64,000 nt of DNA from Candidatus Bathyarchaeota archaeon. Lineage in GTDB: Archaea; Thermoproteota; Bathyarchaeia; Bathyarchaeales; Bathycorpusculaceae. Of this stretch, positions 41,631 to 56,727 are shown one piece after another. The DNA lies in NCBI GenBank assembly GCA_963702095.1, contig OY969706.1, positions 608,001 to 672,000 on the forward strand, given 5' to 3'. The notes beneath the pieces are model-generated. The model was not told where the DNA came from and made no database searches. It was given only the letters and a program-made list of their open reading frames with translations. The translations under genes and the position numbers were made by a program. Each line of letters begins with the position of its first letter. Positions within the stretch are counted from its first letter, which is position 1.

Positions 41631-41674
41631 TGCTGTGGGGCGGGATTTGAACCTGCAAACCCCTGCGGGAAAGG
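41631..41674 (-). repeat. Degenerate duplicate of the tRNA-Leu 3' half (old att site)
   Basis: tgctgtggggcgggatttgaacctgcaaacccctgcgggaaagg versus 56603-56645 tgctacgggcaggattcgaacctgcgaacccctgcgggaaagg. Confidence 0.85.
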
Positions 41675-41682
41675 TTCACGTT

Positions 41683-41941
41683 TTATTTGTCATAAACTTT
41701 TTTGCGGTGCCCAATAGTTCGGATAATGATTTTATGCTCAGACACTTGGTAGATTACCCTATAATCGCCCGTTCGAAAAGACTTAAGCTCACTTAAACGT
41801 CCCACCAATTGTTTGCTAGCAAATGGCTTGTCTTCTAAAATTTCCAGTTCTCTTAGGATTCTGATTTGGGTTTGCCTATCGAGGCGCTTGAGCTTTTTTT
41901 AGGAATTCTTTGGTAAAGGTGAACTCAAAGCTCTTTTTCAT
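41683..41941 (-). pseudogene. relE: RelE/ParE-family toxin, frameshifted in an A7 run (41894-41900)
   Basis: Corrected read MKKSFEFTFTKEFLKKLKRLD...FRTGDYRVIY...IGHRKKVYDK; overlaps the antitoxin 3' end. Confidence 0.8.
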
Positions 41942-42155
41942 CGATGCTCAACTCTCGGAGCAATTCTTTGTAGCTAAGCACTCTATTTTCTTCAACATTT
42001 TTTTGGCTGGCTTGAATGCTCTTCATCAGTTTCTCATCACTTAAAATTTCCAGTGTCTCCTTGAGTTCCTCAACAACTATGCGTAGTTTAGGTAGTTCTT
42101 CCGCTATGACTTTGAGATTCCTTTTGTCTTCGTCTGTAAAAACCGCTTCAACCAT
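41925..42155 (-). CDS. Archaeal RelB-like antitoxin
   Basis: ETLEILSDEKLMKSI...ENRVLSYKEL pattern; directly upstream of the RelE-like gene. Confidence 0.75.
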   Translation of the reverse strand: MVEAVFTDEDKRNLKVIAEELPKLRIVVEELKETLEILSDEKLMKSIQASQKNVEENRVLSYKELLRELSIDEKEL

Positions 42156-42229
42156 CCTGACATCACCAGTTGCATCCCACTATTCTATTGTCTTTGGTAT
42201 TAAAAATTTCTCTAATAAACAAGGTTTTG

Positions 42230-42247
42230 TGGTGCTACGGGCAGGAT
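42230..42247. repeat. att core, left boundary: 18-bp direct repeat of the tRNA-Leu 3' end
   Basis: tggtgctacgggcaggat is identical to 56600-56617. Confidence 0.9.
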
Positions 42248-42438
42248 GCCCGACACCAGAAGCATTTTCGTACTGCCTCCTCCCCCTCTTTTTCTACGCA
42301 AACGGTTTCTTCACTTTCAAATTCTCTCTCGAAACAAGTATTCTACTGTATGGACTGCCTCTTTTGGTGTGGGCGCTGTATCGAGCCAATCCTAAAAGGG
42401 ACTAGAGCAGTCATTAATCGTATCGCTATTTCTGAAGC

Positions 42439-43437
42439 ATGTGGGCGGTTCTTGAAAGCGAAGAGAGATTGATTTTTTTGGGCCCCACGTCTGGAGATAG
42501 AAGTCAAAATATTTCGCGTTTAAAGTCAAAAGTCAAATTTGACTTCAATACCGTCCGCTCCCGCGTCATACCCATACTCAAAGGCATCGAAGTCAAAATG
42601 TACCCTGCCAAGATAGGACGAGTACGCGGATGGAAGCGCCAGCATGTAGCTTACTATGTTAAGAAGCTTGAAAAGGCAGGTCTAATCCGTCGCTTGAAAC
42701 GCAGTAACATCATTGATTACGAGTTAACTGAGCGAGGTCAAAATTTTCTCATATCCTGTGAGGGAGTCCTCTTTAGCAGCGGGGTGTTTCGGTTGCATCG
42801 ATGTTTCTTCAAGTATCCGGTGTTGCGTGAAGGAGTTTATCCATCGGGGGATTTTAAGCGGATTGAGATGCAGAATTGGACCGCTCTTTTGGGTTTAGAG
42901 CAAGGCGTCAAGGTGAGGCATACGACGACGTCTTGGATTGTTCATGTTGAGACTTTCTATGGTCGCAGTCCCGGAGAGCTGGTGACTTTAGCTAAGAATT
43001 TGGCTGACCGTGTCGCTCAGGGTTTAATGAGTAAGTATGGTTGTGTTTTGGGGCAGGGAACAATTAACAATCGTCATGAGTTAGGCATCGATGACCCAGT
43101 AGCCAATCTGTTAAACCGGTATTTTGAGGTGAGCACGCCTAAGCGGTTGATTGATGATAGCCCAGGAGAAGACGAGGGAGAACTGGATCATCTGGGTCGT
43201 GATGCTGCAGTCGAGTATTTGCTGATGCCTGAGCGGGTTAAGAAACTGGAAGGACAAGTAGAAACTGCGCTTGGCGATTTAGAGCGGATTTCAGGCAGTC
43301 TTGCAAAACTGGAGAAGATGGGTTGCGACTTGGCTAAGGTCGCGGACGCTTTAGGGCGACTTGTAGGCAATTTAGAGGGAGCTACCCAAGAGGCACCTCA
43401 AACTGGTGGAGAGGGAGGAAAAAGCTATGTGTCTTAG
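42439..43437 (+). CDS. wHTH-containing mobile-element protein, possible replication initiator (start may be ATG 42598)
   Basis: N-terminal wHTH (HVAYYVKKLEKAGLI...YELTERG), RLH and IDDSPG motifs, C-terminal coiled coil. Confidence 0.5.
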   Translation: MWAVLESEERLIFLGPTSGDRSQNISRLKSKVKFDFNTVRSRVIPILKGIEVKMYPAKIGRVRGWKRQHVAYYVKKLEKAGLIRRLKRSNIIDYELTERGQNFLISCEGVLFSSGVFRLHRCFFKYPVLREGVYPSGDFKRIEMQNWTALLGLEQGVKVRHTTTSWIVHVETFYGRSPGELVTLAKNLADRVAQGLMSKYGCVLGQGTINNRHELGIDDPVANLLNRYFEVSTPKRLIDDSPGEDEGELDHLGRDAAVEYLLMPERVKKLEGQVETALGDLERISGSLAKLEKMGCDLAKVADALGRLVGNLEGATQEAPQTGGEGGKSYVS

Positions 43438-43588
43438 CGTTAGTTTCAGTTTTTTGGCTGTTGAAACCTGTTCAAAAGCCATTTTAGTACATAGGCGAGG
43501 GTATGGGAAAAGTCCATGCTTTTTGGAAGTTGCTTTTCTACGGTTGCTTGGTGTATAGATGCCAGACTGTTAAAACTTGCCTGTCTGA

Positions 43589-44146
43589 ATGGAGCGAAAA
43601 CCTTGGAGTGTGCATTTTGACATGGAAGCAAGCGATGAACCTGTTCAAAACACGGCATTTTCAACCCAAAAAGCAGAGAAAAAGAAGCGCAGCCAAGACG
43701 ACAAGGTCGGGAAACTCAAATACCTACTTGCCAAGGACAAGAAACTCGACCGCGACGTCGCTGAGATAAAGCTGTTGCTCAGAGTTATCTTTGCTGGCTT
43801 GAAGGATACTTTGCATTTTGAGAAATCGCTTATCGAAGAAGCGGCCTGCTGCGATGAGGTCGACAAGGCAATTCTTCAGTTGCTGTTTGAAGCAGGCGCT
43901 TCTGGGCTGTTGCCTAAAGACATAGCCGCCAAATTGGTTGAGTTCAACATTACCCGACATCAAGTGACTCGACGGATTGTACGCATGAATAAGCGGCTGG
44001 CTAAAGAGTTGGATTCAGTGGTTGTTGAGCGGCGGGGTTGGTGCTGGGCTATGACAAACTTTGGCGTAGACGCTTACAACGCTTCAGAGAAAGACGTGCT
44101 AGCCGAAGGCGTAAACATACATAGTGCTTCTGAAGAGGAGACATAG
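43589..44146 (+). CDS. wHTH DNA-binding protein
   Basis: DEVDKAILQLL...LPKDIA...RHQVTRRI pattern. Confidence 0.6.
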   Translation: MERKPWSVHFDMEASDEPVQNTAFSTQKAEKKKRSQDDKVGKLKYLLAKDKKLDRDVAEIKLLLRVIFAGLKDTLHFEKSLIEEAACCDEVDKAILQLLFEAGASGLLPKDIAAKLVEFNITRHQVTRRIVRMNKRLAKELDSVVVERRGWCWAMTNFGVDAYNASEKDVLAEGVNIHSASEEET

Positions 44147-44149
44147 CTT

Positions 44150-44365
44150 ATGGCGTTGACTGAGCGTGAGAAAGCGATTTTGCGTTTGAAGGCAGAGGGG
44201 GTATCCGATTATAAAATTGCTAAGAAATTAAAGATAGAATCACCTAATGTATCTCGTTCTCGAAAGAAAGCTCTTAAAAAAATTAAGCGGGCTAAAGCTG
44301 ACTTAGAATTTATAGACACTCTAAAAACCAAATGTCCAACTGTTCTTCGGGATTATAATTTATAA
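44150..44365 (+). CDS. Small LuxR/sigma70-region-4-like HTH protein
   Basis: LTEREKAILRLKAEGVSDYKIAKKL. Confidence 0.75.
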   Translation: MALTEREKAILRLKAEGVSDYKIAKKLKIESPNVSRSRKKALKKIKRAKADLEFIDTLKTKCPTVLRDYNL

Positions 44366-44507
44366 GGAACTCGTGCATTTTGTCGGATTATTCTTGGGTT
44401 CATAATTAGTTGTTTATTTTGTCATTTGATTGCTCGTTCCTATTGTGGTATTGTGTGAAAATGAGGATTCCTCCAAGAATTTTAGCAGTTGTTTATCTCA
44501 TATGGTT

Positions 44508-44717
44508 TCAAGCATTTGCTTCCTTCTGTTGTATTAAGCCTCGTTTTAAAGCCAGAAAAACAAAAAACTGAGATAATGCTGCCACAGAAGCCGCTTCTAT
44601 CGCATTTAGTGTATTAATTCCAGTTATTGCACCACCGCCTAATGCGCTAAAAAAAGTTACACCGCTAATTATGATAGCGTCTATCAATGCATTCTCCCAA
44701 TCAAACTTTTTTTCCAT
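44508..44717 (-). CDS. Small two-TM membrane protein (holin-like)
   Basis: 69 aa from ATG 44717; two hydrophobic helices and a charged C-terminus; located in the provirus. Confidence 0.5.
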   Translation of the reverse strand: MEKKFDWENALIDAIIISGVTFFSALGGGAITGINTLNAIEAASVAALSQFFVFLALKRGLIQQKEANA

Positions 44718-45101
44718 CTCATTTATTTTGTTCGTGCAATAAATTATGAAGCCCTTTATTGTCAACGTTGCAGTTATTTTCTTTTTTGTCACTTCACCAT
44801 TTAGAGTGCATTTGGTCATGTGTTTCCCCCAATTAAACTACGGTATCTAGGTTAATGAGGAAACGGTATATTTGCCAAACCACTTCGAGAAGTAATTTTT
44901 CAGAGGCTATTTACGAAAACCACCGTTTGATTGATTTCTATTCAGCAAATTCCTAAAGTGGAAAAATGGCTAGTCATACAAACGGCAAATTGAACTGCCA
45001 ACGATAAGGCGATTATGGTCAGAGAGTAAATCGGTAAAAATTTAGATTCATAATACCTGGCAAAAACTCCAATCAAGCGCTACTCCCGTAAAATTCAAGA
45101 A

Positions 45102-45302
45102 ATGATTAATTATTTTTCCGCCAAAACTGGAGGTGAAACAATCAAGCCCAGAGAACTCATCTGCCCAGGATGTGGAACCCCTATTGCTCAAAGTAACTGT
45201 GAGAGCTGTAGAAAGAAGCGCATTCGTAGCTATAAATGCCTAAAATGTGGCTCCGAGGTCCCTAACCCAGAATATGGAACGATGAGGGCAAATAATTTTT
45301 AA
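45102..45302 (+). CDS. Small Zn-ribbon protein
   Basis: CPGC, CESC and CLKC motifs. Confidence 0.5.
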   Translation: MINYFSAKTGGETIKPRELICPGCGTPIAQSNCESCRKKRIRSYKCLKCGSEVPNPEYGTMRANNF

Positions 45303-45344
45303 GGTAAAATCTCCTTTTTTCTCAGTATCATATTTTTTAAGGTG

Positions 45345-46700
45345 TCAGCGTTTACGCCGCTTTCCTAAAATTATGCCTGTCAATACAAAAAGTAGTGCTA
45401 TGATGATCGTGGTGATGACAACAAAGCTGTCAATATGAAAGTTATCGGTAGCAGTCTTTGGATCTGTAGATCCTAAATTTATTGCATAAATGTTAATCTT
45501 GCTAATTAGCGGATAATGGTCAATGTTGTTTTCATTTATAGTGTAAGATGCGCTGCCTATTCCAGAGGTACTTGCTACTTGCGATTGTGGAGTGTAATCG
45601 CTCCAATAGTTACCAAAATAGCCATTATCCCAAGAAACAACATTGGTGCCGTTCCCAATTACTTGACCGTTGTAACTCTGGTTAACCATAAGCAGCAAAT
45701 TTGGGGGATATGCACTCTCTACAACTGCGTTTGCTGTATTATTGATTAAATTGTTATTGAATACACTATTTCCATTTCCGACCTCAGGCGCAAAGGGCCA
45801 TAGAAGGAAATTGCTTACTTTTACTCCAACACCATTATCCGTAATATTATTAGAGTATACATTGGAATCTCGGCAAAAATCGTTAAAGTTAATACCAAAA
45901 TCTCTATTTTTCTGGATTCGGTTTTCGAAAATCTTGAGATCACTAGCATTCGGTCCAATTAGTAGGCCGCCAAACTCACCTGCGTTTGTGCTAAATCCAT
46001 TGTTTGAAATCATATTCGCCTGAAGAATAATATCGTGGCAGCTTGAAAATTGAACACCAATATCACAATCTGTAATGGTATTACCTATAATTGAAGTATC
46101 AGACGAGCTAACAATTATTCCAAAAGAAGCTTGTCTAATCAAGTTACGTGCAATCGTATTGTTTGTTCCTTCATTAGTAGAAATGCCGGCTGACTTATTG
46201 GCTATAATAATATTATCCGTTATTTCTACTCCTGATGGGTTTACACCGTTATATTCACCATAATCCCAAAGCCCTATCTCCGTTCCAGCGTAACCCGTAA
46301 CTGTGAAGCCTGAGATAGTGACGTTATCGGAGACAACCCCAATTACCGCTTGGGCATCCCTGGCGTCTGCTCCGTGAATAATGGTGTTTTTGTTGTTTTC
46401 ACCGATCAGAGAGATAGGCTTGTTTATCAGAATAGCCACATCGCCTCCTGTTATGTAATCGACATTGTAAGTGCCAGAACGTACAAAGATCATATCGCAT
46501 GGTTTAGCGCTATCTATGGCGGATTGTATAGTTTTATACTGGTCAGGAACAATTAAAGCCCCGTCCGAAGGGCTGAACTCTCCATCTTCAGGGTTTGCAA
46601 AACATAATTTAACCTGTAAAAACAAAGATGACCCCAACAGACCAATAACGGTTAATATTAGAATATATTTACGCTTGTTCAGGTTGCGCTCACTTGTCAT
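45345..46700 (-). CDS. NosD/CASH-type parallel beta-helix surface protein (host-like cargo)
   Basis: VPDQYKTIQSAID, N.I..N..GI repeats, GNYWSDY, D.YPL, signal peptide and C-terminal TM. Confidence 0.85.
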   Translation of the reverse strand: MTSERNLNKRKYILILTVIGLLGSSLFLQVKLCFANPEDGEFSPSDGALIVPDQYKTIQSAIDSAKPCDMIFVRSGTYNVDYITGGDVAILINKPISLIGENNKNTIIHGADARDAQAVIGVVSDNVTISGFTVTGYAGTEIGLWDYGEYNGVNPSGVEITDNIIIANKSAGISTNEGTNNTIARNLIRQASFGIIVSSSDTSIIGNTITDCDIGVQFSSCHDIILQANMISNNGFSTNAGEFGGLLIGPNASDLKIFENRIQKNRDFGINFNDFCRDSNVYSNNITDNGVGVKVSNFLLWPFAPEVGNGNSVFNNNLINNTANAVVESAYPPNLLLMVNQSYNGQVIGNGTNVVSWDNGYFGNYWSDYTPQSQVASTSGIGSASYTINENNIDHYPLISKINIYAINLGSTDPKTATDNFHIDSFVVITTIIIALLFVLTGIILGKRRKR

Positions 46701-46946
46701 CTGTATGGTCTGGTAAAATAAAAAGTTTTACAAATTGGCAGGTCTGCAGGGAATTGTACGACTTACTGATTTTATATGTTAATATGGTCTCCCGCTTGTT
46801 AGACAAACATATCGTCCTGTTTTAACCTTGCCTAATAGTATTCACCTTCACCTAAAAGGTGTAAAACATGAAGAAATTCAATAATTTGAAAGAAACAAAT
46901 AGGCTCCAGCGAAGTTTAGACTTTAGACTTGGGGAGGACGTAACTT

Positions 46947-48509
46947 ATGTGTCCATATGATCATGCTGATACTTCTACGCATATCGATCAAATTCCGAAT
47001 TATCCTCCAGCAAAAACTTGGGACACAAACTTCCAATGCGATCCTCACAACACTGATGCCCAATCTATGGGGAATGTTGGAGTAACTTATTGGCGAAACC
47101 CACAATCCCTAGGACATGGAGTTAACATTACTGTACCGAAAGGAACAGGTGGAAATCCTGGTAGTTGCACAATAAGCTTTACTTGCACACAACCAAGAGG
47201 ATACTCGAATAAAGACGCCTGCCTGCTGTATTATGCTCCCATCGCAATCTCACCCGGCGACACCAACGATATTCGACTTAGCTTTCAATTAAACCTAGGA
47301 GTACAAAAAGATCTATGCTATATCAATGGGGCTGTTGGTCAAGGGGCGCAGCAATGCTATGACCTTGTCAATAACAATTATGACTATAATGATACAGGAC
47401 TAAACTGCATCGTCATTTACAACTATAGCCAACAGTGTGATGTTAGACTCATAGACTTTCAAGTTGTTAGAACTTATACAATGCAGAGACTTGCAGATAA
47501 CCCATGCTCAGAAGTTCCTCAGACGCCCGCTACCGGAACTCTAGATCAGTACCGTATTGATTATCCCTGCAACATAAATCAATGTGGAGGAAGAAGCTAT
47601 ACATTCCATTTCGATGGTTACCATGAAGGCGAATACTTAGCAAGCGGAAATTACTTTGAATGGTCATTCAACTGGGCTAAAGATTGGACCACACCACTTG
47701 GCGATGATCACAACTATATTGCTAAAGAAATATGCATGTTTAACTTCAATCAAATTAAAGCTACCAATGGCTCTACGGATGTTCACTTAAGGGCGTACCT
47801 TAATGGCGTCTCGGTCGGTGACTATTATATAAGCAAGCAGTATAACAACTGTTCATTCCCGAGCATTGATTTAGCAGATTTTGACGCCTATAATGACACT
47901 GGTTCAAACACTGTCAGACTCACAAACTTAGGCGACCGCCAAATTCAGATGTGCGACGGAGCTGGCATAAATATCTATCGAATCTATAGGACTGAGTGCA
48001 TTTCAATGCATTTGATTTCTCCAACAGCAGGTATGGGCGGTTCAATAGTTGCAACGCCTCAAAACATTTACAGGCAATATATCCCAGTGGCTTCAGGCGA
48101 TAATCAACAATTCCAGATAACAGCGAACTCAAACTATTTGATTTCAGATGTTGTGATTAATAGTAGTCAGCATTTAGGGGCTCAAAGCAGCCCTTACACG
48201 TACACATTCAACAACGTCACTGGAGACGGTTCAATTTCGGCAGAATTCGCTGCAAATCAGCCAACCCATAACTTAACTATCAATGCATTCCTTGACCCAA
48301 TATCAGATTACGTCAATGTAGGTGTCAGCGTTAACGGCCAGTATGTAGGAACAACTCCTGTAACAGTTTCAGTGCCCGAAGGGACTTCAACAGTTTACGT
48401 AGACTTCAACTATGGTTACTGGTGTTTCATACTCTTCAACAACAGCTATGCAATGGGTGATCCTATACCTGTCTACTCAGACGTAACATTAACAGCCCGA
48501 TACGCATAA
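46947..48509 (+). CDS. Cys-rich multidomain protein: N-terminal HxD motifs, two internal repeats, InlB-B-repeat-like and PEGA-like C-terminal domains
   Basis: HAD..HID start, YNDTG.N twice, YTYTFNNVTGDGSISAEF and VNGQYVGTTPVTV; no signal peptide. Confidence 0.7.
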   Translation: MCPYDHADTSTHIDQIPNYPPAKTWDTNFQCDPHNTDAQSMGNVGVTYWRNPQSLGHGVNITVPKGTGGNPGSCTISFTCTQPRGYSNKDACLLYYAPIAISPGDTNDIRLSFQLNLGVQKDLCYINGAVGQGAQQCYDLVNNNYDYNDTGLNCIVIYNYSQQCDVRLIDFQVVRTYTMQRLADNPCSEVPQTPATGTLDQYRIDYPCNINQCGGRSYTFHFDGYHEGEYLASGNYFEWSFNWAKDWTTPLGDDHNYIAKEICMFNFNQIKATNGSTDVHLRAYLNGVSVGDYYISKQYNNCSFPSIDLADFDAYNDTGSNTVRLTNLGDRQIQMCDGAGINIYRIYRTECISMHLISPTAGMGGSIVATPQNIYRQYIPVASGDNQQFQITANSNYLISDVVINSSQHLGAQSSPYTYTFNNVTGDGSISAEFAANQPTHNLTINAFLDPISDYVNVGVSVNGQYVGTTPVTVSVPEGTSTVYVDFNYGYWCFILFNNSYAMGDPIPVYSDVTLTARYA

Positions 48510-48520
48510 TCAACAAAAAG

Positions 48521-48709
48521 GTGAATAATATGTCTGAAATAAGCGAATTAACACAGAAGTTGCAGCCAGCACAACAAATCAAAACAAAGTTAATCGTCAA
48601 CGAAATGATAGTTCAAGTGGATTCCGTCGTAAAAAAACTGATCTCGCAGAATGCGGCCCTAAGAAAGGAAAACGCTGATCTAAAGGCTCAACAAGCAACA
48701 ACGATATAA
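48521..48709 (+). CDS. Small coiled-coil protein
   Basis: LISQNAALRKENADLKAQ heptads; tightly follows 48509. Confidence 0.55.
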   Translation: MNNMSEISELTQKLQPAQQIKTKLIVNEMIVQVDSVVKKLISQNAALRKENADLKAQQATTI

Positions 48710-48857
48710 ACGAAAAAACCTCTTTCTTTCCCTATTTTTTTACTTATATTAAATCAAACATTTACTCCAAATAGCAAATAGTGTTTCGGAAACCTATCGT
48801 TTGGCTTAATGCCCCAAACAAGCGTCTTTAGAACATGGAGGAATAAAAATAACTACA

Positions 48858-50090
48858 TTGATTCTACCAAGTATCGCGTGCAACCTAAGATGTAGCTATT
48901 GTTTCGGTCATAATCATTATTGGAACACCGCACAAAAATATGATCTTCAATCCATCTTAGATTCCATGGAACAGCTAAAACAACAATCAAGTGATGAAAC
49001 TTTTTCATTGCATGGCGGTGAATGCACTTTGGTACCTCGAGAAGACTTTGAAGTTTTACTTAGGAAAATGGTTGATCTTCAGGGATATTCCTCTTTGCAA
49101 ACGAATTGTTATCAGTTGGATGAGGACTTAATTAGGATGTTTATAAAGTACCGCACTTCAGTGGGTATAAGCATCGATGGAAATGGACCTTTAAATTCAT
49201 TGAGAGGCTTCCCTCGAAATCGAAAAGTAAACAGAAATTACACTAATCAAGTGATTAATAACATAAGCAGGCTTCGTCAGGCAGGCATATCAGTAGGTAT
49301 ACTTACAATATTGAGTAAAGTCAATGCTGGTTCTAATTGCAAACTCATGGCGCTTCTTCGTTTTATTCTTATGTTGAGAAACCACGGCGTCAAAGATGGC
49401 CGGCTAAATTTTATGTGGAGCAACCTGCCCGACGTAAGAAAGATTGAATTAACACCCGAAGAGGCGTCACAAGCTTGGATATACCTTTACCAACATATGA
49501 AAGAATACGATGATCTTCACTGGCAACCTTTCAGAGAGTTTAGCGACAGCTTGCTTGGATTTGGGAATTCAAGTTGTTCCTATGGACAATGTGACTATTT
49601 TTGCACTCAAACCAAACTTATCTTGCCTGATGGTATAGTCGCTAACTGTGATCGAACGCACCAAGAGGACTCTTTCTATACAAGGGCACAACTGTCCTAT
49701 GAAAGATATGACATTCTAAAACAGACCGACTGTTACCATTGCAGATTTTGGGATGTTTGCTATGGAGGATGCCCTGCTGAAGGAGCAGAAGGGGATTGGC
49801 GGAATAAAACAAGATGGTGTAAGCCCATTTATGATTTATACTTACAAATTGAAAATCAACTGAAAAGCACTTTTCCCAATGTTAAACTCATGTCTCATTA
49901 TGCTGGTTCAGAAGATTATTTCCACACCTTCAGCCAAGGGATAAAAAACGATCCTTTTAGGTGTATGTCATGGAAAACCGCTAAAAACCCGTCTTCTTGG
50001 AAGGCGGTTCAGTTATATGACCAACAAGAAAGACAAAACCAAACAAGTATAGTCCCTTTACCAAGCGATCATAATAAAATAACCAATTAA
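48858..50090 (+). CDS. Radical SAM/SPASM-domain maturase-like enzyme
   Basis: CNLRCSYC, HGGE, LQTN, ISIDG; SPASM-like C..C.FW.VC.GGCP plus CSYGQC..FC. Confidence 0.9.
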   Translation: MILPSIACNLRCSYCFGHNHYWNTAQKYDLQSILDSMEQLKQQSSDETFSLHGGECTLVPREDFEVLLRKMVDLQGYSSLQTNCYQLDEDLIRMFIKYRTSVGISIDGNGPLNSLRGFPRNRKVNRNYTNQVINNISRLRQAGISVGILTILSKVNAGSNCKLMALLRFILMLRNHGVKDGRLNFMWSNLPDVRKIELTPEEASQAWIYLYQHMKEYDDLHWQPFREFSDSLLGFGNSSCSYGQCDYFCTQTKLILPDGIVANCDRTHQEDSFYTRAQLSYERYDILKQTDCYHCRFWDVCYGGCPAEGAEGDWRNKTRWCKPIYDLYLQIENQLKSTFPNVKLMSHYAGSEDYFHTFSQGIKNDPFRCMSWKTAKNPSSWKAVQLYDQQERQNQTSIVPLPSDHNKITN

Positions 50091-50103
50091 AAGAGGAATC
50101 AAT

Positions 50104-50904
50104 GTGAAAGAAATCAACCCCTTCATAAAAATTTCTTGGAGCTCAGAGGAAACTAGAAGAAAATGGGCTTCGTATTTGCCTTCTATTGCTAAAATAACCG
50201 CTAATTCAGAATACGCGCTGGTGAAAAAGGGAATAAGAGCCGCTAACATATTTTGTATGCATCCACAAAGTTTTGACAGAGAAATCGAAAAGATAACAAT
50301 GGATGGCCTTGTCTTTCTGCCCATGCTTAGAAGTAAGTCATACGTAGGATTCAGTCATAAGCACAATCCTGTTAAGGCGATAGATTCCAACGCTCTAATA
50401 TACGGTGTCATTGCAAGAAAGCTTGAAACAGCACAAAATTTCGTAAATCTTTCAAATGAAAATAACCATATAGCAATTGGTCAACTGCTAGGTTATCCTA
50501 ATTGCTGCTCAGAAGCCTTTCAGCAATACTGGGGAAATAGAGAAATATTCGACCCATGCTACGAAATAGCTCAATGCACTCCTGGCGCTATTACTAGCGG
50601 CACATGTGTGCACGTGGGTGTCAATCCGTTAATTAATCCGCTTTTAAGGTATTTTGGAATTAAGGTTATTCCATTCTTTCCATGCAGCTATGAATGCCCT
50701 CAGGCTGTAAAGATCGCTGAAGTTTGGTTTAATGAGCTGAAATCCCTTGATGTCGAAATTGCCAGTGTAATAAAAAAATTCATGGAACAATCGATGACTT
50801 GGAGTCTGAACAAAGGGATTATTTTCGTAAAAAATCCTATTTTCAGAGGTGTGGTAAATGGTTATGAGTGTAAAATTAAAAAGGAAATCTTTGCAAACTG
50901 TTAG
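50104..50904 (+). CDS. DUF483-like Cys-motif protein, partner of the radical SAM enzyme
   Basis: IGQLLGYPNCC and FFPCSYEC motifs; 13 bp downstream of the rSAM gene. Confidence 0.7.
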   Translation: MKEINPFIKISWSSEETRRKWASYLPSIAKITANSEYALVKKGIRAANIFCMHPQSFDREIEKITMDGLVFLPMLRSKSYVGFSHKHNPVKAIDSNALIYGVIARKLETAQNFVNLSNENNHIAIGQLLGYPNCCSEAFQQYWGNREIFDPCYEIAQCTPGAITSGTCVHVGVNPLINPLLRYFGIKVIPFFPCSYECPQAVKIAEVWFNELKSLDVEIASVIKKFMEQSMTWSLNKGIIFVKNPIFRGVVNGYECKIKKEIFANC

Positions 50905-51080
50905 AATTTCCCAAAAAAACAAAAGCAGTTATGCGTCTGGCTATCAAAAAATAACCCTGATAATCTCCCAAAGCTATTTCTCGTAAGTATGCTGAAAGAT
51001 TGTATGAACTTGATCCAATTTGACAATTTAATAACAAAAAAGCCGTTTTAATTGGGGAGTTAGTTATATGGGGGGTCAAA

Positions 51081-51302
51081 TTGGTAAAGTTCCAAGAGTT
51101 CTGGATTAAGAAATCCTATAAGAAATGGAAACAGAAATACCGTTATCGCGGGGTTCTGATTAAAATCCCTAAAAAATTTCACAAGACGATTGAGCCCTTC
51201 ATAGGATTAGATCTAGAAATTGTTGAGATTACAACAGCTAATCACAACCTTAACGATGTGTCAATCAGAATAGTTTTAGTTAGAAAGGCGCTTAATGCAT
51301 AG
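51081..51302 (+). CDS. Small basic protein, possibly AbrB-like DNA-binding
   Basis: YRYRGVLIKIPKKF motif; GGGGG RBS-like tract. Confidence 0.5.
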   Translation: MVKFQEFWIKKSYKKWKQKYRYRGVLIKIPKKFHKTIEPFIGLDLEIVEITTANHNLNDVSIRIVLVRKALNA

Positions 51303-51598
51303 GGCTATCTTGCGCCGCAAACAAGTCTTTTCCAGTTTTATTCTTGTTTATGCCTTGCGTTAACTTTTTCTAGGTCTAGAAATATACCGTTATAGAAACC
51401 GTCTTTTATACTCAATCCATCCCGTTTTTTTATCAAAGCTAGCAAACTTGATATATAAAAGCCGATGAACAAGAAATTCCCTTGATTTTTGCAGTCCTAG
51501 AAATTTTTTGCCCCTAACGGTCTTGTCGAATTGACAGGCGTTAAGGTTAGATAGCTTTGTTGTTTTACCCCCTTCAGAGCTAATATCGGGGGGAAAGA

Positions 51599-51970
51599 AT
51601 GTTTACGGTTAATAACGGTACTCGGCTTCTAGTTTTCAGTGGACGAGAAGCCCGTTTAAACCGTGCTATTTTTCAGATAATGCGAAAGAAAGACTACTCT
51701 TGCTATGACATTTACAAAGAACTTCGCCACTTGAAAGAGTTTAGGCATGTGGATTATCGTACAGTTACAAGACGTATACAGGCGTTATTGAGGGAGAAAT
51801 GGATTGACGAGAGAGGAAGTAAACTAACTCAGCCAGGCTGGGATTCGATTATATATGGTTTAACGGTCAGAGCTGAGGCGGCTTTAGCTTTAGACAAAAT
51901 AAATTTAGATAGCTTCCTTGAAACAGTGTCTGACGATCAAATTCAAAGACTCATTGATTCTTTAAGATAA
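51599..51970 (+). CDS. wHTH protein, paralog of 53931-54323
   Basis: LVFSGREARLNRAIF...YDIYKE...RRIQAL...W pattern. Confidence 0.7.
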   Translation: MFTVNNGTRLLVFSGREARLNRAIFQIMRKKDYSCYDIYKELRHLKEFRHVDYRTVTRRIQALLREKWIDERGSKLTQPGWDSIIYGLTVRAEAALALDKINLDSFLETVSDDQIQRLIDSLR

Positions 51971-52162
51971 GTCTGTTTTAGATACATGGCTTTTTGGTCT
52001 ACGATAAGCCATGATGGCTTTGTGGAGATGGATGCTCTTTATGCTTAGTTACCAATCATCTCCCTGATGATCTGCATGATTTCAGTACTTACCGAGTGCT
52101 GTTATTCAGTTTGCTCTAAGGGGGATTGCTAGCTGGAACTCAATAAAATTCTTGCTTCCTCT

Positions 52163-52420
52163 TTGAGACAAAAAATTATCGAGGAACTCTCATCAACAAG
52201 GGAAATTCGGGTGATGAAATTAGCACAAAGGGTTAATAGTACTTACAATGATTTGAACAGGAACCTTGTCACATTAGAAAAAGAGGGTATAATAATTAAT
52301 GAGTATAGAGAAGTGGTAAGGCACGGAAGAATTAGAATATTACGTCTTAATATGGATAATGAAAAAACAAAAGTTCTTCTAATTGTGTTGAAAGCCATTA
52401 AACCAAACGGCAGTAGTTAG
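52163..52420 (+). CDS. ArsR-like wHTH protein
   Basis: RQKIIEEL...MKLAQRVNSTYNDLNRNLVTLEKEGII. Confidence 0.65.
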   Translation: MRQKIIEELSSTREIRVMKLAQRVNSTYNDLNRNLVTLEKEGIIINEYREVVRHGRIRILRLNMDNEKTKVLLIVLKAIKPNGSS

Positions 52421-52560
52421 AGTAGCTACGCCCCAAACCCATTTTTAGTTAGGTTCAGCGTTTCCTAAAATCTCTAGTTATCCTGTTTATGGTAGTATCC
52501 TGTTTTGGCTCTCAAGCCATTAATGCTTAATCGCAGAATTGTTTTCTTGGCGATTTAGCT

Positions 52561-53478
52561 ATGTCTCAGGATGGCTCTGGCTGTAAGGATTGTAAGCATG
52601 TTCGGGAGCACGTATCTTCGGTTCTTCCCTTCAAAGTCCTTGAAGCAGTAGCAGAGAAGCCCTTACGAATCGGCGGAGTTGCATTGGCCGCTGGAATGTC
52701 TAGGAACTTTAACGTTTATACGCCTGAAGAACTCCGAGCTTTTGCTGACAAGTTGGTTGATGCCCCTGTCTATATTGAGCATGTGGCTGTTGATTCGGCT
52801 GTTGGAAAAGTAACCAAGTGCAACTACGATGCCGCTGCTCGATGTCTAAATTATGAGGCTGAGATTTATGACGCTGCCACCGCTGATAAAATTAGAAATG
52901 GACTCGTTCAGCACGTTAGTGTCGGCGCTGACTACAACACGCTTGACGTAGTGGACGCCAAAGTTCCGCACGGCCTATTCAATCCCGAGTTATCGCTTGT
53001 TGCCGTTCCAGGTGTGCCTGAAACTAACGTTCAGGTACTAGAGCATCTTGCAACGGGTAAGAATCCTGTACAATTGGCAGAGAAAGACTTGAATTTAATC
53101 GCTGAAAAGGTCGCTGCAAAAGTAAACGGACAGAACACGGAAACAATCGAGAACCTCAAATTACAGATTTCAGAAGCTAACACAAAGTTATCTGACACAG
53201 AGAGCAAATGCAAGACCGCTGAGAATACCTGCGATGAGGCAAAAAACCAGCTGTCTACTGCTAACAAAACCATCGAGGAACTGCGAAAGAAGTTGCCCGG
53301 TGGAGGATTGCTAAAAAAGCCGTCAATTATGATTCCTCTCTCTGAGCATATTGCTTGCCTTGAGCGTTTGTTGCCTTCTCAAATGGTGCAACGTTCAAGC
53401 TTGGGCATGCAACGTATCTGTCAATCTATCCGCTCAGAAGTTTTTAAGGCAAAAGAACGCTTGGGGCGTGGACCTTAG
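52561..53478 (+). CDS. Caudoviral prohead maturation protease with a C-terminal coiled-coil scaffold
   Basis: SRN..VY..EEL, PVYIEH, VGKV, I..G....VSVG and ELSLVAVPG motifs, followed by heptad repeats. Confidence 0.78.
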   Translation: MSQDGSGCKDCKHVREHVSSVLPFKVLEAVAEKPLRIGGVALAAGMSRNFNVYTPEELRAFADKLVDAPVYIEHVAVDSAVGKVTKCNYDAAARCLNYEAEIYDAATADKIRNGLVQHVSVGADYNTLDVVDAKVPHGLFNPELSLVAVPGVPETNVQVLEHLATGKNPVQLAEKDLNLIAEKVAAKVNGQNTETIENLKLQISEANTKLSDTESKCKTAENTCDEAKNQLSTANKTIEELRKKLPGGGLLKKPSIMIPLSEHIACLERLLPSQMVQRSSLGMQRICQSIRSEVFKAKERLGRGP

Positions 53479-53555
53479 TTTATGCTCACTTTTGTGGGGC
53501 TAGCTGGCCAAGAACGACCTTGGCTGAACGTTAAAACTTTTGGAGATTATTTTGG

Positions 53556-53786
53556 ATGGCTGATAAAACAGGTAAGCCTTGGATGGCTGCTGGCGAAACT
53601 GACGATCCAAATGCAGTCATTGAAAGTTATGCGGCCAATGGCGCAGTTATAAAGGGGTCACCTGTCGAATTAACAAATGATGGCAAAGTGACGGCTACTC
53701 CTACCACTTGGTATGGCTTTGGCATTGCTGTTAAAGCCGCTGCGGATGGCGAGCAGGTTCTATCAAACATTCTAGAACCAATTTAA
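53556..53786 (+). pseudogene. Head decoration/cement protein (DUF2190-like), apparently truncated
   Basis: A.GAVIKGSPV.L..DGKV...GIAVKAAADGEQV, then an abrupt end; directly after the protease. Confidence 0.55.
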
Positions 53787-53930
53787 CCGCTCTATAAAGC
53801 GGAAAAGGCGATTATACAGTCTTCCAACTTACGCCCATTTTCCTCTACATGAAAGGAGCAGGCGTGCCTCTGCATGGCATGCCAAAGCACCCAGCTTTTG
53901 CTCTTCTGCCCGTCGGGGGAGTAGACATCT

Positions 53931-54323
53931 GTGACTCGGAAGAGATGCAAGGGCACAGAACTGAAAGTGTTTAGCGGCAGAGAGGCTGCCCTAAACTTTG
54001 TCATCTTTCTGGTTCTCTACCCAGAGGGCAAACTTTTGGCAAGTTATGACGTATTCAGAGAGGTTAGAGCCGTCAAAGGCTTCAGACGCAAAGGAAGACA
54101 AAACATTGACCGGCGACTGAAGGCTCTTTTCAAGCAGCACTGGCTAGAATTAGAAGGCACAAGGACTATACGTGCACATTTTTCCGTTACACCCCTCTAC
54201 AAGTTGAGCCTAAGAGGCAGGGCAGCCTTAGAGCTAAGTAAAAAAGACCTCAACGTTTTTCTTCAAATAGCGCCCGAAGACCAACTCCAAAAGCTAATAG
54301 ATGCACTAAAGATGTATCCGTAA
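53931..54323 (+). CDS. wHTH protein, paralog of 51599-51970
   Basis: LKVFSGREAALNFVIF...YDVFRE...RRLKAL...W pattern. Confidence 0.7.
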   Translation: MTRKRCKGTELKVFSGREAALNFVIFLVLYPEGKLLASYDVFREVRAVKGFRRKGRQNIDRRLKALFKQHWLELEGTRTIRAHFSVTPLYKLSLRGRAALELSKKDLNVFLQIAPEDQLQKLIDALKMYP

Positions 54324-54331
54324 CAGAATAG

Positions 54332-54369
54332 TCTCGTTGCTAACCCCTACAACGAGATGATCTCGTTGT
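54332..54369. promoter_or_regulatory. Inverted repeat acaacgagat-g-atctcgttgt plus an extra tctcgttg half-site
   Basis: Perfect 10-bp arms at 54349-54358 and 54360-54369, upstream of the 54423-integrase gene run. Confidence 0.55.
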
Positions 54370-54422
54370 GTCGATAGATAGTTTTTACGTTTAGCCTGAG
54401 AGTTGGTCAAGGTGAAAAAGGC

Positions 54423-54683
54423 TTGGTTAAACCCCAAAAAGTAACTGTACAAGAAATCATCAGAGACATCGGCGCTATCCTAAACAAGATCAACCGTGTA
54501 CTAAACGACCACGAGCAAAGACTGCAGCTTATCGAAGAGTTAGCCCTCAAGTCTGAGCTTGAACTACTCAAAAACCGAATTCTATCTATTTCTGACCAGA
54601 ACAAGCAGAAGGAAGCTTTGCAGGCGTTCAAGAATCTGTGCGATACGCTTGGAATCTCGGATTTAGACGTTGTCAAATCATAG
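54423..54683 (+). CDS. Coiled-coil hypothetical protein
   Basis: 86-aa ORF with LNDHEQRL heptads. Confidence 0.55.
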   Translation: MVKPQKVTVQEIIRDIGAILNKINRVLNDHEQRLQLIEELALKSELELLKNRILSISDQNKQKEALQAFKNLCDTLGISDLDVVKS

Positions 54684-54701
54684 GCTGTTGGGTGGGAGGG
54701 A

Positions 54702-55172
54702 ATGGCTGAACTTACATCAAACGTGACACAACCCCCAGGCAGCATTGGAGGCACAAACTGTAAGTCATCCCTGAAAGGGGATGCAGGCACCAGCTCCCCA
54801 AACCCATCTCAGCAACTGATTTTTGTCCGCTACCTAGACCATGTCCTCTACAACCGCAATTATGCTGTTTTGATGAAACCGCAGACAAGAGAAGCCGTCG
54901 GCTGGCTAGTCTACGATTGCGAGTTGTACCTCGTTTTATCTTGGGATAGAGACGCTGAGCCGCCTACGCTTCATGGCGGCGACCCTAAAGCTTCTGGTTT
55001 GGTGCTTCTGAAAAGCGATATTTTGGACTTGCAACTGTTTACGGTGGGTTTGCAGTCTCTACCAGAAAATTATGAATTGAATTTAAAAAGCAAACAAGCC
55101 ATACAAGAGGTTGAGTATGCGTTCCGACCATCGGAGCGAAAAACTCTAAGAGAAGGAGTCAAGAAAAAATGA
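54702..55172 (+). CDS. Hypothetical protein
   Basis: GGAGG RBS; ATGA overlap with the integrase; V.Y.DH...GWLV pattern. Confidence 0.6.
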   Translation: MAELTSNVTQPPGSIGGTNCKSSLKGDAGTSSPNPSQQLIFVRYLDHVLYNRNYAVLMKPQTREAVGWLVYDCELYLVLSWDRDAEPPTLHGGDPKASGLVLLKSDILDLQLFTVGLQSLPENYELNLKSKQAIQEVEYAFRPSERKTLREGVKKK

Positions 55173-56686
55173 GCAACATCAGACTAGCACCGCCTATCAT
55201 CCGCAAACAGCAACTAACCATCGAAGACATAAAAGACCTCAAGCTGCCAATCGAAATCTTAAGCGACAAAATCATCATCACACGCAGCCTAAGAAACTGG
55301 AAACTCCAACAACCAATCACACTGGAACTAAGCAAAGTCTTAGACGCCAAAGAAAAAGGACTCGTAAACTACATCATAACCAGCTTCATCAGCGACCGAC
55401 CCGCCCTTCTACCATTCGTTTTCGACAATCAAAGCCTAATCAAACTCGCCAGACACCTACTGCGTCACTACAGTGGAAGCTACAAAAGCTGCCTCGTCTA
55501 CACAGTCAACTTCTATAGATACTCCACATGGCTCGGCTACTCCCCTGACCTAATCATAGCAGACCTAAAACCAGTAGGAAACATTCCTGACCCCCAACGC
55601 GTACAAAACCACACCGGATACCTCAACGACTACTTAGCACAGCTGCAAGACGACGGACTTAAACCCGGAGGCGTAGAGAACCGCATCAAAGCCGTAAAAA
55701 CCTTCTACCGCGTCAACGGCGTAAAAATTGAGCTCACCGAACCCCTAAGCCGACGAGTCGTCTACAAAGACCGAGCACCAAAACCTGAAGAACTCGCAAC
55801 CATGCTGGACTTAACCGATCTACGCGGCAAAGTCATCGTTTCATGCCTCGCACTAGGCGGTTTCCGAGAAGAAACCTTTTCCAAACTGCTCTACCGACAT
55901 GTCAAAGACGACTTAGAAGCAGGGACCATACCCATCCACGTACACGTCGAAATCGAAATAACCAAAGGCAAATACCACGACTACGACACGTTCCTAGGCG
56001 CCGAAGCCGCATACTACCTAAAACTCTACCTCGACCAACGCAGAAAAGGCACAAAAAAAGTCCCACCCGAAAACATAACCTACGACTCACCTTTAATCCG
56101 CGATGAAACCCGCCGAACCCCAAAAAGCATAAGCACCAAACAACTCCGAAAAATCGTACACGAACTCTACTTCAAAGCAGGCTTTATCAAACCCAACAAA
56201 ACAGGCGCAATGTACGACCTCCGCGTTCATAGCATACGCAAATACTTCAAAACCCAACTAATCGCACTTGGCGTTCAAGAAGACTACGCTGATTACTTTA
56301 TGGGCCACACAGTAGACACCTACCACGACATTCAAAGCCTCGGCATCGACAAACTACGCACCATCTACGCCGCAGCAGGCTTAGCCATACGCAAAAAAAC
56401 AGCAATCAGCAAAATCGACACCATAAAAGAAATGATACGGGCATTAGGCGAAAACCCAGAGCAGCTACTGACACGAGAAGCGCTGTCCAGAGGCAACCAC
56501 ACAGAGCTAAACATCGAAGATCATCAGGTTGGCGTGCTTACTGAGGAGTTAGTGAAGTTGATCCGCCAAACAGCGGACAGTACAAATGCTCATCGGGAAT
56601 GGTGCTACGGGCAGGATTCGAACCTGCGAACCCCTGCGGGAAAGGATATCCCATCCGTGGGGCCAGACCTGCCGGCCAAACGTTGA
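55169..56686 (+). CDS. int: Tyrosine recombinase/integrase
   Basis: GGFREE (R), TKG (K), HSIRKYF (HxxR) and MGH...TYH (H, Y); reads through the att core into the tRNA antisense strand. Confidence 0.92.
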   Translation: MSNIRLAPPIIRKQQLTIEDIKDLKLPIEILSDKIIITRSLRNWKLQQPITLELSKVLDAKEKGLVNYIITSFISDRPALLPFVFDNQSLIKLARHLLRHYSGSYKSCLVYTVNFYRYSTWLGYSPDLIIADLKPVGNIPDPQRVQNHTGYLNDYLAQLQDDGLKPGGVENRIKAVKTFYRVNGVKIELTEPLSRRVVYKDRAPKPEELATMLDLTDLRGKVIVSCLALGGFREETFSKLLYRHVKDDLEAGTIPIHVHVEIEITKGKYHDYDTFLGAEAAYYLKLYLDQRRKGTKKVPPENITYDSPLIRDETRRTPKSISTKQLRKIVHELYFKAGFIKPNKTGAMYDLRVHSIRKYFKTQLIALGVQEDYADYFMGHTVDTYHDIQSLGIDKLRTIYAAAGLAIRKKTAISKIDTIKEMIRALGENPEQLLTREALSRGNHTELNIEDHQVGVLTEELVKLIRQTADSTNAHREWCYGQDSNLRTPAGKDIPSVGPDLPAKR

Positions 56687-56727
56687 TCTTGAGTCCTTCA
56701 CCTTTGACCTGGCTTGGTTACCGTAGC
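56600..56727 (-). tRNA. tRNA-Leu(CAA) with a 40-nt intron at 37/38 (56648-56687); CCA encoded
   Basis: Acceptor GCTACGG/CCGTAGC, AAGGA/TCCTT anticodon stem, long variable arm, GGTTCGAATCC; canonical bulge-helix-bulge (CUCA pairs with UGGG). Confidence 0.92.

Follow-up and report, generated by a model that had tools for sequence, protein, structure and literature searches.

In pNOB8-type systems, the integrase is left fully unchanged by integration and the attachment site (att) lies outside the int open reading frame (ORF). The accessible part of one source defines this type by the catalytic-residue consensus R...YXXR...Y (PMC8371274). SSV-type integrases are described, in the available portions of two papers, as archaeal tyrosine integrases with att inside the ORF and a tRNA gene as target, where integration splits int into inactive halves (PMC7253208, PMC8371274). 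As far as the accessible text goes, phage Mx8 also carries attP inside int, and its integration gives int a new 3′ end and a changed specificity without inactivating it (PMC6070905). In mycobacteriophage BPs, attP lies inside the repressor gene; the viral form of the repressor is longer than the prophage form, and its extra 33 residues carry an ssrA-like degradation tag, according to the parts of the report available to us (PMC4557955).

The window analyzed herein is a 64,000-nucleotide stretch of a Bathyarchaeia genome that contains an integrated element with a tyrosine integrase at its right end. A first-pass annotation had proposed that excision would exchange the C-terminus of this integrase, in frame, for a Cys-rich tail, and that this exchange is a recombination-controlled domain switch. 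At the DNA level, the in-frame join is real, and a small subclade of related elements shares it. The join is probably a tolerated by-product of the loss of the integrase stop codon combined with a stop-free, pyrimidine-rich linker, and not an evolved domain switch.

The Integrated Element and Its Attachment Sites

The 18-nt core at the left border is repeated exactly at the right border, and the string occurs just twice in the 2.94-Mb single-contig genome (Table 1). The right core is the 3′ end of a tRNA-Leu(CAA), comprising the encoded CCA, the acceptor strand, and part of the T arm; Rfam scores this minus-strand tRNA at 43.3 bits (56603–56727). The core repeat and the tRNA together are a true att pair. 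Default ARAGORN overlooks this tRNA, which needs the intron option or Rfam to be found, and no second tRNA-Leu(CAA) is among the ARAGORN calls for the genome. The G+C content is lower in the 14.4 kb between the cores, which encode winged-helix (wHTH), LuxR-type HTH, beta-helix, PEGA-domain, radical SAM, and DUF483 proteins besides the integrase.

Table 1. Features of the element and its borders (positions in the window).
Feature	Position	Strand	Remarks
attL core	42230–42247	.	exact 18-bp copy of the tRNA-Leu 3′ end; repeat family D3, 100%
Pyrimidine-rich linker (attP arm beside the core)	42248–42346	plus	no stop triplet in any frame; T5 run 42289–42293
Small Cys-rich gene, 40 aa from ATG	42347–42472	plus	first Cys 42347, ATG 42350, stop 42470–42472
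T7 run directly 3′ of the Cys-gene stop	42473–42479	plus	terminator-like tract (putative)
Winged-helix regulator gene	42598–43437	plus	weak MarR/HTH matches; GAAGTCAAAAT repeats upstream
Tyrosine integrase, 505 aa integrated	55169–56686	plus	usual stop of the family aligns at residue 472
attR core	56600–56617	.	within both int (residues 478–483) and the tRNA
tRNA-Leu(CAA), 40-nt intron, encoded CCA	56600–56727	minus	ARAGORN with introns allowed, and Rfam
Integrated element, 14,388 bp core to core	42230–56617	.	exact core repeats, gene content

We infer that the element excises. Among the sequencing runs listed for this DNA there is no RNA run; in the only two DNA runs, both of one study, which contain a 0.05–0.06 share of the query words in relatives mostly less than 95% alike, no joint from 56617 to 42230 was reported; one contig from these runs begins its exact match at 42230, its other 874 nt lying outside the comparison. 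That the element is a dead remnant from which no circle is ever made, so that the frame relation described below has no consequence, would agree with the lack of a circular junction or an empty site in runs that hold relatives at such a small word share, and with the fact that no replication or capsid gene was recognized among its genes. We give this idea little credence in view of the exact core repeats, the intact 505-aa integrase with all family-invariant residues, and the near-identical elements found in different flanks of other genomes (L005, L165).

Several further features lie at the left border of the element. The GAAGTCAAAAT repeats ahead of the winged-helix gene, including the palindrome AAGTCAAATTTGACTT, occupy 42495–42600 and are likely operator sites; copies of this winged-helix/repeat region, 89–91% identical, stand at two other places in the same genome. 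Left of the element, a 37-nt copy (92%) of part of the tRNA-Leu T arm and variable arm is found at 41638–41674; next come, both on the minus strand, a ParE-like toxin fragment (41683–41808) and a 76-aa ORF (41925–42155). With an att-like site on either side, the region 41638–42229 resembles a small toxin–antitoxin islet. The int end adjoins this islet, and not the tRNA, in another genome (L177) and also in one contig of run X2.

The Integrase and the Loss of the Family Stop

The PF00589 profile scores 23.7 bits against the window integrase (cut-off 27.1) over residues 216–381, and a precomputed PF00589 match is recorded for most of the listed homologs. R233, H354, R357, H380, Y385, and Y400 do not vary among 20 aligned sequences and display the R..HxxR..H/W..Y pattern. 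Every family-invariant residue lies N-terminal of the core, that is, before residue 478, which confirms the earlier view that integration does not split this enzyme in the SSV1 manner.

The family is large, with 1012 proteins at E ≤ 1e-3 among 8000 candidates scored, and uniform in length, 111 of the best 120 homologs having 468–487 aa. The names carried by the homologs place the host in Bathyarchaeia. The C-terminus reads ..LI[RQK]xxxxx* in 11 of the 14 homologs inspected and aligns to window residues 464–471; since most homologs end there, the usual stop aligns at residue 472, six codons ahead of the core. Another of the 14, P0101, ends ..QMCSADGGPDGN, a GGPxGx tail. Only in P0001 (96%) and P0002 (84%), the two closest of those inspected, is WCYGQDSNLRTPAGKD read into the tRNA. 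Among 85 int loci, made up of five from IMG/VR and the best 80 of 561 metagenome matches, the read-through is shared by a single locus (L085, 92%), and a 91% relative in another genome (L165) reads through as well. The homologous counterpart of the window's STNAHREW sits beyond the stop in L105 and L116. Since the closest relatives alone read through, the subclade of the window has lost the family stop.

What replaces this stop in the integrated state varies. The provirus tails comprise 22 residues in the window, 31 in P0001, 23 in P0002, 33 in L085, and 35 in L165, and they are unlike in length and in sequence beyond the tRNA exon. On this comparison, the integrated-state tails look arbitrary.

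A different ending, ..GGPxGx*, is found in 12 of the 85 int loci, a set that includes the best 80 of the 561 matches (L098, L107, L109, L111, L115, L117, L119, L123–L125, L129, and L135). In eight of these 12, the 3′ end of an antisense tRNA called by ARAGORN begins a few codons ahead of the int stop; counted by eye, the distance is 19 nt in six loci and 16 nt in L115, while the stop of L111 was taken from its tail string. Because these 12 loci end a few codons into an antisense tRNA, an int 3′ end that overlaps att is common in the family.

Frame Across att and the Predicted Circle Product

The core encodes WCYGQD in frame both as integrase codons 478–483 and in the ORF that crosses the left core (42170–42472). 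These readings were recomputed on the exact repeat and agree with the first-pass annotation, as do the 505-aa length of the integrated form, with 22 more residues from the antisense tRNA after the core, and the computed product of the circle. When int, taken as far as its core, is joined by script to the DNA that follows the left core, the ORF runs to 42472 and encodes 557 aa. Of its 74 residues beyond the core, the first 36 hold five Cys and nine Ser; a Ser-rich stretch is followed by ..YCMDCLFWCGRC..ACGRF... The 505- and 557-aa forms thus differ in their C-terminal residues, the integrase being otherwise intact.

How much this frame relation says depends on the DNA that it crosses. In the window, TAA, TAG, and TGA are absent from all forward frames between 42216 and 42393, so the open frame by itself is weak evidence and only the phase, a one-in-three chance, needs explaining. 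Once the int stop was lost, the prior for entering the Cys frame is about one in three.

Close relatives preserve the join. L005, an integrated close relative with a 91% identical Cys peptide and a different left flank, has the same in-frame linker. L020 comes from the genome with the 91% integrase, where it occupies the end of a contig; there, a decayed int 3′ fragment (56% over the last 90 residues) leads through the same WCYGQD core and the linker into the Cys gene, in frame. We read L020 as the probable relic of a tandem neighbor; it shows that the attP-type junction of the subclade exists in DNA. All three subclade junctions (window, L005, and L020) are in phase and free of indels.

Outside the subclade, the junctions are closed. 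In L013, which shares its contig with L081, and in L041, a 64% identical int ORF is followed by TAA, TAA, and TGA, then by a tRNA-Lys core and 40 open codons that contain no start besides the ATG after the first Cys. In L171, with a 54% identical int, a TAG precedes the core, and the Cys gene lies in another frame and is itself frameshifted. A further case comes from the window's own genome, where a 48-kb element outside the window (element B, G000:C1:1066541–1114517) occupies tRNA-Lys(TTT), with a 14-nt tRNA-Lys core at both ends, Cys and winged-helix genes on one side, and a 52% integrase on the other. Its int ends with one TAA; the 17 codons from there to the core are open in the Cys frame and include no ATG, GTG, or TTG. 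The int/Cys phase is thus alike in the window subclade, element B, and L013 and unlike in L171, a comparison of only four cases. Conservation of the frame across att, which the first-pass annotation had suggested checking, holds in L005 and L020 and gives way to stops or a frame change in L013/L081, element B, and L171.

The frame arithmetic and the in-frame junctions of L005 and L020 are the part of the domain-switch proposal that stands. Under this proposal, the circle would produce an Int–Cys fusion and the provirus an integrase with a meaningless tail, so that different proteins would catalyze integration and excision; the Cys domain, by analogy a free accessory protein elsewhere, might alter direction, stability, or arm binding. 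The in-frame junction kept in the three subclade members and the stop loss that is stable throughout the subclade would fit such a switch. So would the position of the Cys gene, directly across attP from int in many elements, as a place for an accessory factor, and there is a precedent in Mx8, whose new int 3′ end alters specificity in the accessible account (PMC6070905). We nevertheless consider a switch unlikely, given the one-in-three phase prior over a linker that is stop-free in all frames, the separation of int and Cys gene in other lineages, and the evidence presented in the following two sections.

An Independent Family of Small Cys-Rich Proteins

The sequence that the circle frame would enter is, judged from its homologs, an independent and conserved small-protein family, separate from int in most related elements. 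Its motif is C-x-D-C-x-F-W-C-G-R-C..E-P..A-S-S-x-A-C. A phmmer search of 1.84 billion representative proteins with the 80-aa tail gave 17 matches. Sixteen are proteins of 51–147 aa with C-x-D-C-x-F-W-C-G-R-C-[ST]-E-P...A-S-S-x-A-C; the remaining match, a repeat protein of 399 aa, is unrelated. No integrase is among the 17, and a search restricted to longer proteins returned no match, which is weak evidence by the tool's own account. The integrase homologs with a Cys-rich tail that the first-pass annotation had envisaged thus appear in neither search, and a fused protein that a switch would lead one to expect is absent from both.

The Cys gene was located in 75 loci, 11 from IMG/VR and 64 in species-representative genomes. 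Almost all are labeled Bathyarchaeia or Bathyarchaeota, the others Crenarchaeota or uncultured archaeon. Three contigs (L016, L043, and L047) belong to one MAG labeled Methanocella sp., which may point to misbinning or to a broader range of hosts. The window's genome has three copies of the gene, the third at about 233618, and is without family integrases beyond the three found.

Ten columns are invariant in the 64-sequence alignment (C7, D9, C10, F12, W13, C14, G15, R16, C17, and C38), and the protein is presumably metal-binding. Neither Pfam nor PHROGs contains a match to the peptide, and comparison with PDB profiles yielded nothing credible, with one chance match at E 0.26. AlphaFold2 models built from 16 and 64 sequences had pLDDT values of 52 and 51, respectively, below what a fold search requires, and the best ESM Atlas score, 0.85, came from unnamed viral clusters and is under the useful range.

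In 32 of the 75 loci, the gene is preceded, at a distance below 200 nt, by the end of a complete sense tRNA (Lys, Arg, Asn, Pro, or Ser); in other loci, the window among them, an antisense tRNA fragment stands beside the gene. Because a tRNA end or fragment adjoins it, the Cys gene is in many loci the first one within att. In a second group, stops lie upstream and the gene has its own ATG 8–20 codons ahead of the first Cys, in some cases following another gene (L011, L016, L018, L023, L032, L040, L063, L066, L068, L077, and copy C of the window's own genome). These members, together with the independent conservation of the family, speak against the first-pass reading of the Cys-rich part as an integrase domain. 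The first-pass annotation had itself named stops right after att, or an independent conserved gene with its own start, as grounds for refuting the proposal, and the related loci largely show this state.

The position of the start codon differs between the groups. In a comparison of 67 dereplicated loci, made without regard to kinship, 54 have no ATG in the 25 codons upstream; in 44 of these, an ATG or GTG directly follows the first Cys codon, and in 10 another codon does. Of the 13 loci with such an upstream ATG, one has ATG or GTG in that place and 12 have another codon. This pattern suggests that the M of C-M-D-C is the start in att-adjacent copies. In the window, the start would then be the in-frame ATG of ..YCMDC.. 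(42350–42352); the remaining in-frame ATG, GTG, and TTG codons, at 42170, 42188, 42194, and 42227, all lie left of the core.

The Linker, Its T Runs, and Translation Upstream of the ATG

Oligo-T tracts terminate archaeal transcription. Two such tracts flank the Cys gene of the window. One is the T5 run of the linker, 40–45 nt beyond the core, which is a T7 run in L020; the other directly follows the Cys-gene stop, where relatives of group C have T4–T5 runs. As putative terminators, they bear on the domain switch in two ways. Because of the T5/T7 run between core and Cys domain, int transcripts made on the circle may stop before they reach the Cys domain. The retained ATG 42350 and the dedicated T7 run behind the stop agree with the Cys gene being separate.

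The linker also changes in a manner that argues against a switch. Window and L020 differ at 19 of 99 nt without an indel; the changes fall 5/5/9 on the three codon positions, with five synonymous and nine non-synonymous codons. Evolution of the linker is close to neutral on these numbers, which are too few to test; for a codon-position test, the sequences are too similar within groups and unalignable between groups.

Across lineages, the picture is different. With the last 15 nt excluded, 17 of 20 dereplicated sense-tRNA loci have a linker free of stops in the Cys frame, compared with 1 and 5 in the other two frames and about 4.5 of 20 per frame expected from composition-matched shuffles; the count of 17 overstates independence, given the kinship of the loci and the nucleotide motifs common to their linkers. 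An att-to-Cys linker open beyond chance hints at translation upstream of the ATG. The first Cys codon, moreover, is invariant in 36 att-type loci, with a wobbling third base. As the window has no ATG, GTG, or TTG from the core to the first Cys, a protein made from its own ATG would lack this invariant Cys.

These observations could be explained if the Cys gene spans attP, with a start on the int side or by read-through of the int stop, and integration removes its N-terminus. The excess of open linkers would then be coding sequence, as would the conserved V-[FL]-x-C pattern ahead of the ATG, and in element B int and Cys gene share a frame with a single stop between them. Even so, such a spanning gene is highly improbable. 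In each of the three sense-tRNA-type junctions, the interval from the last stop to the ATG that follows the first Cys contains no ATG, GTG, or TTG; three stops in L013 and the frame change in L171 would interrupt it; and L022, L030, L031, and L037 have linker stops despite intact domains. The linkers are, in addition, conserved at the nucleotide level with third positions included, like regulatory DNA. In loci L006–L079, GTACTAG, T runs, and CCTACGTTAGGCGCTAAA recur in the linkers of elements with different target tRNAs.

Proposed Origin of the In-Frame Join and Outlook

The by-product explanation that we favor can be put together as follows. A 14.4-kb integrative element occupies the 3′ end of tRNA-Leu(CAA) in a Bathyarchaeia genome, and its integrase belongs to a large Bathyarchaeia family that usually stops six codons ahead of the tRNA-derived core. 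With the loss of this stop in a small subclade, translation crosses the 18-bp core and proceeds to the next in-frame stop. In the provirus, this stop lies 22 codons into the antisense tRNA; on the excised circle, it would be the stop codon of the first gene across att. That gene encodes a 40–60-aa Cys-rich protein, which would be made from its own start, here probably ATG 42350. Against this explanation, it can be said that the stop-less state has been kept through P0002 (84%) and the L020 remnant (56%). A functional switch nonetheless lacks positive evidence, since the Cys family is independent, the other junctions are closed, and no tailed integrase was found in the protein searches.

A broader idea is that recombination yields two state-specific integrases, the circle form being an integrase with a metal-binding Cys module, which sister elements would supply as a free cofactor, and the provirus form the integrase alone; the frame between att and the module, open in most lineages, would then make translation across att perhaps general. 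We regard this as quite unlikely. If true, the reaction that makes the junction would also set which enzyme comes next. A role of the Cys protein as a directionality factor or integrase accessory is possible, its adjacency to att being the one lead.

To our knowledge, direction control in archaeal site-specific recombination is poorly understood. A literature search of limited extent found, in the texts it covered, no described accessory factor for this integrase family and, supplementary tables aside, no account of this Cys family or of read-through integrases in Bathyarchaeia. Whichever explanation applies, the att-proximal end of many Bathyarchaeia elements can be recognized by a widespread, unannotated family of small Cys-rich proteins. 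ORFs of the integrase family often enter the tRNA, which affects both gene calling and the mapping of element borders.

Comparison with Known Systems

As in the SSV1 type, the window holds an archaeal tyrosine integrase whose ORF contains att in a tRNA gene. Unlike in that type, only residues past the normal end of the family are exchanged, and the provirus retains a whole int. The pNOB8 type differs from the window in another respect, as the core here constitutes codons 478–483 of int. Most relatives, whose int stops ahead of the core, have att outside int and would fit the pNOB8 type. In the sister integrases with the ..GGPxGx* ending, the stop lies in the T-loop antisense near the tRNA end and may fall inside the core, whereas the first stop of the window integrase is outside the 18-bp core, so that its two states differ.

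The nearest likenesses are with phages. The window resembles Myxococcus phage Mx8 IntP in that att lies inside the integrase coding sequence and integration, by the computed join, gives an otherwise whole int a new 3′ end. In Mx8, the change of specificity is experimental, while the window, from an archaeal host, is known from sequence alone, and the part that would be swapped in is otherwise a separate conserved gene. As in BPs, site-specific recombination would set the C-terminus of a protein, which is the repressor there and the integrase here; the extra part in the window is Cys-rich, with no ssrA-like tag seen in it. Should the fused form be produced and act differently, the element would be an archaeal counterpart of Mx8 and BPs, in which recombination rewrites the C-terminus of a protein.
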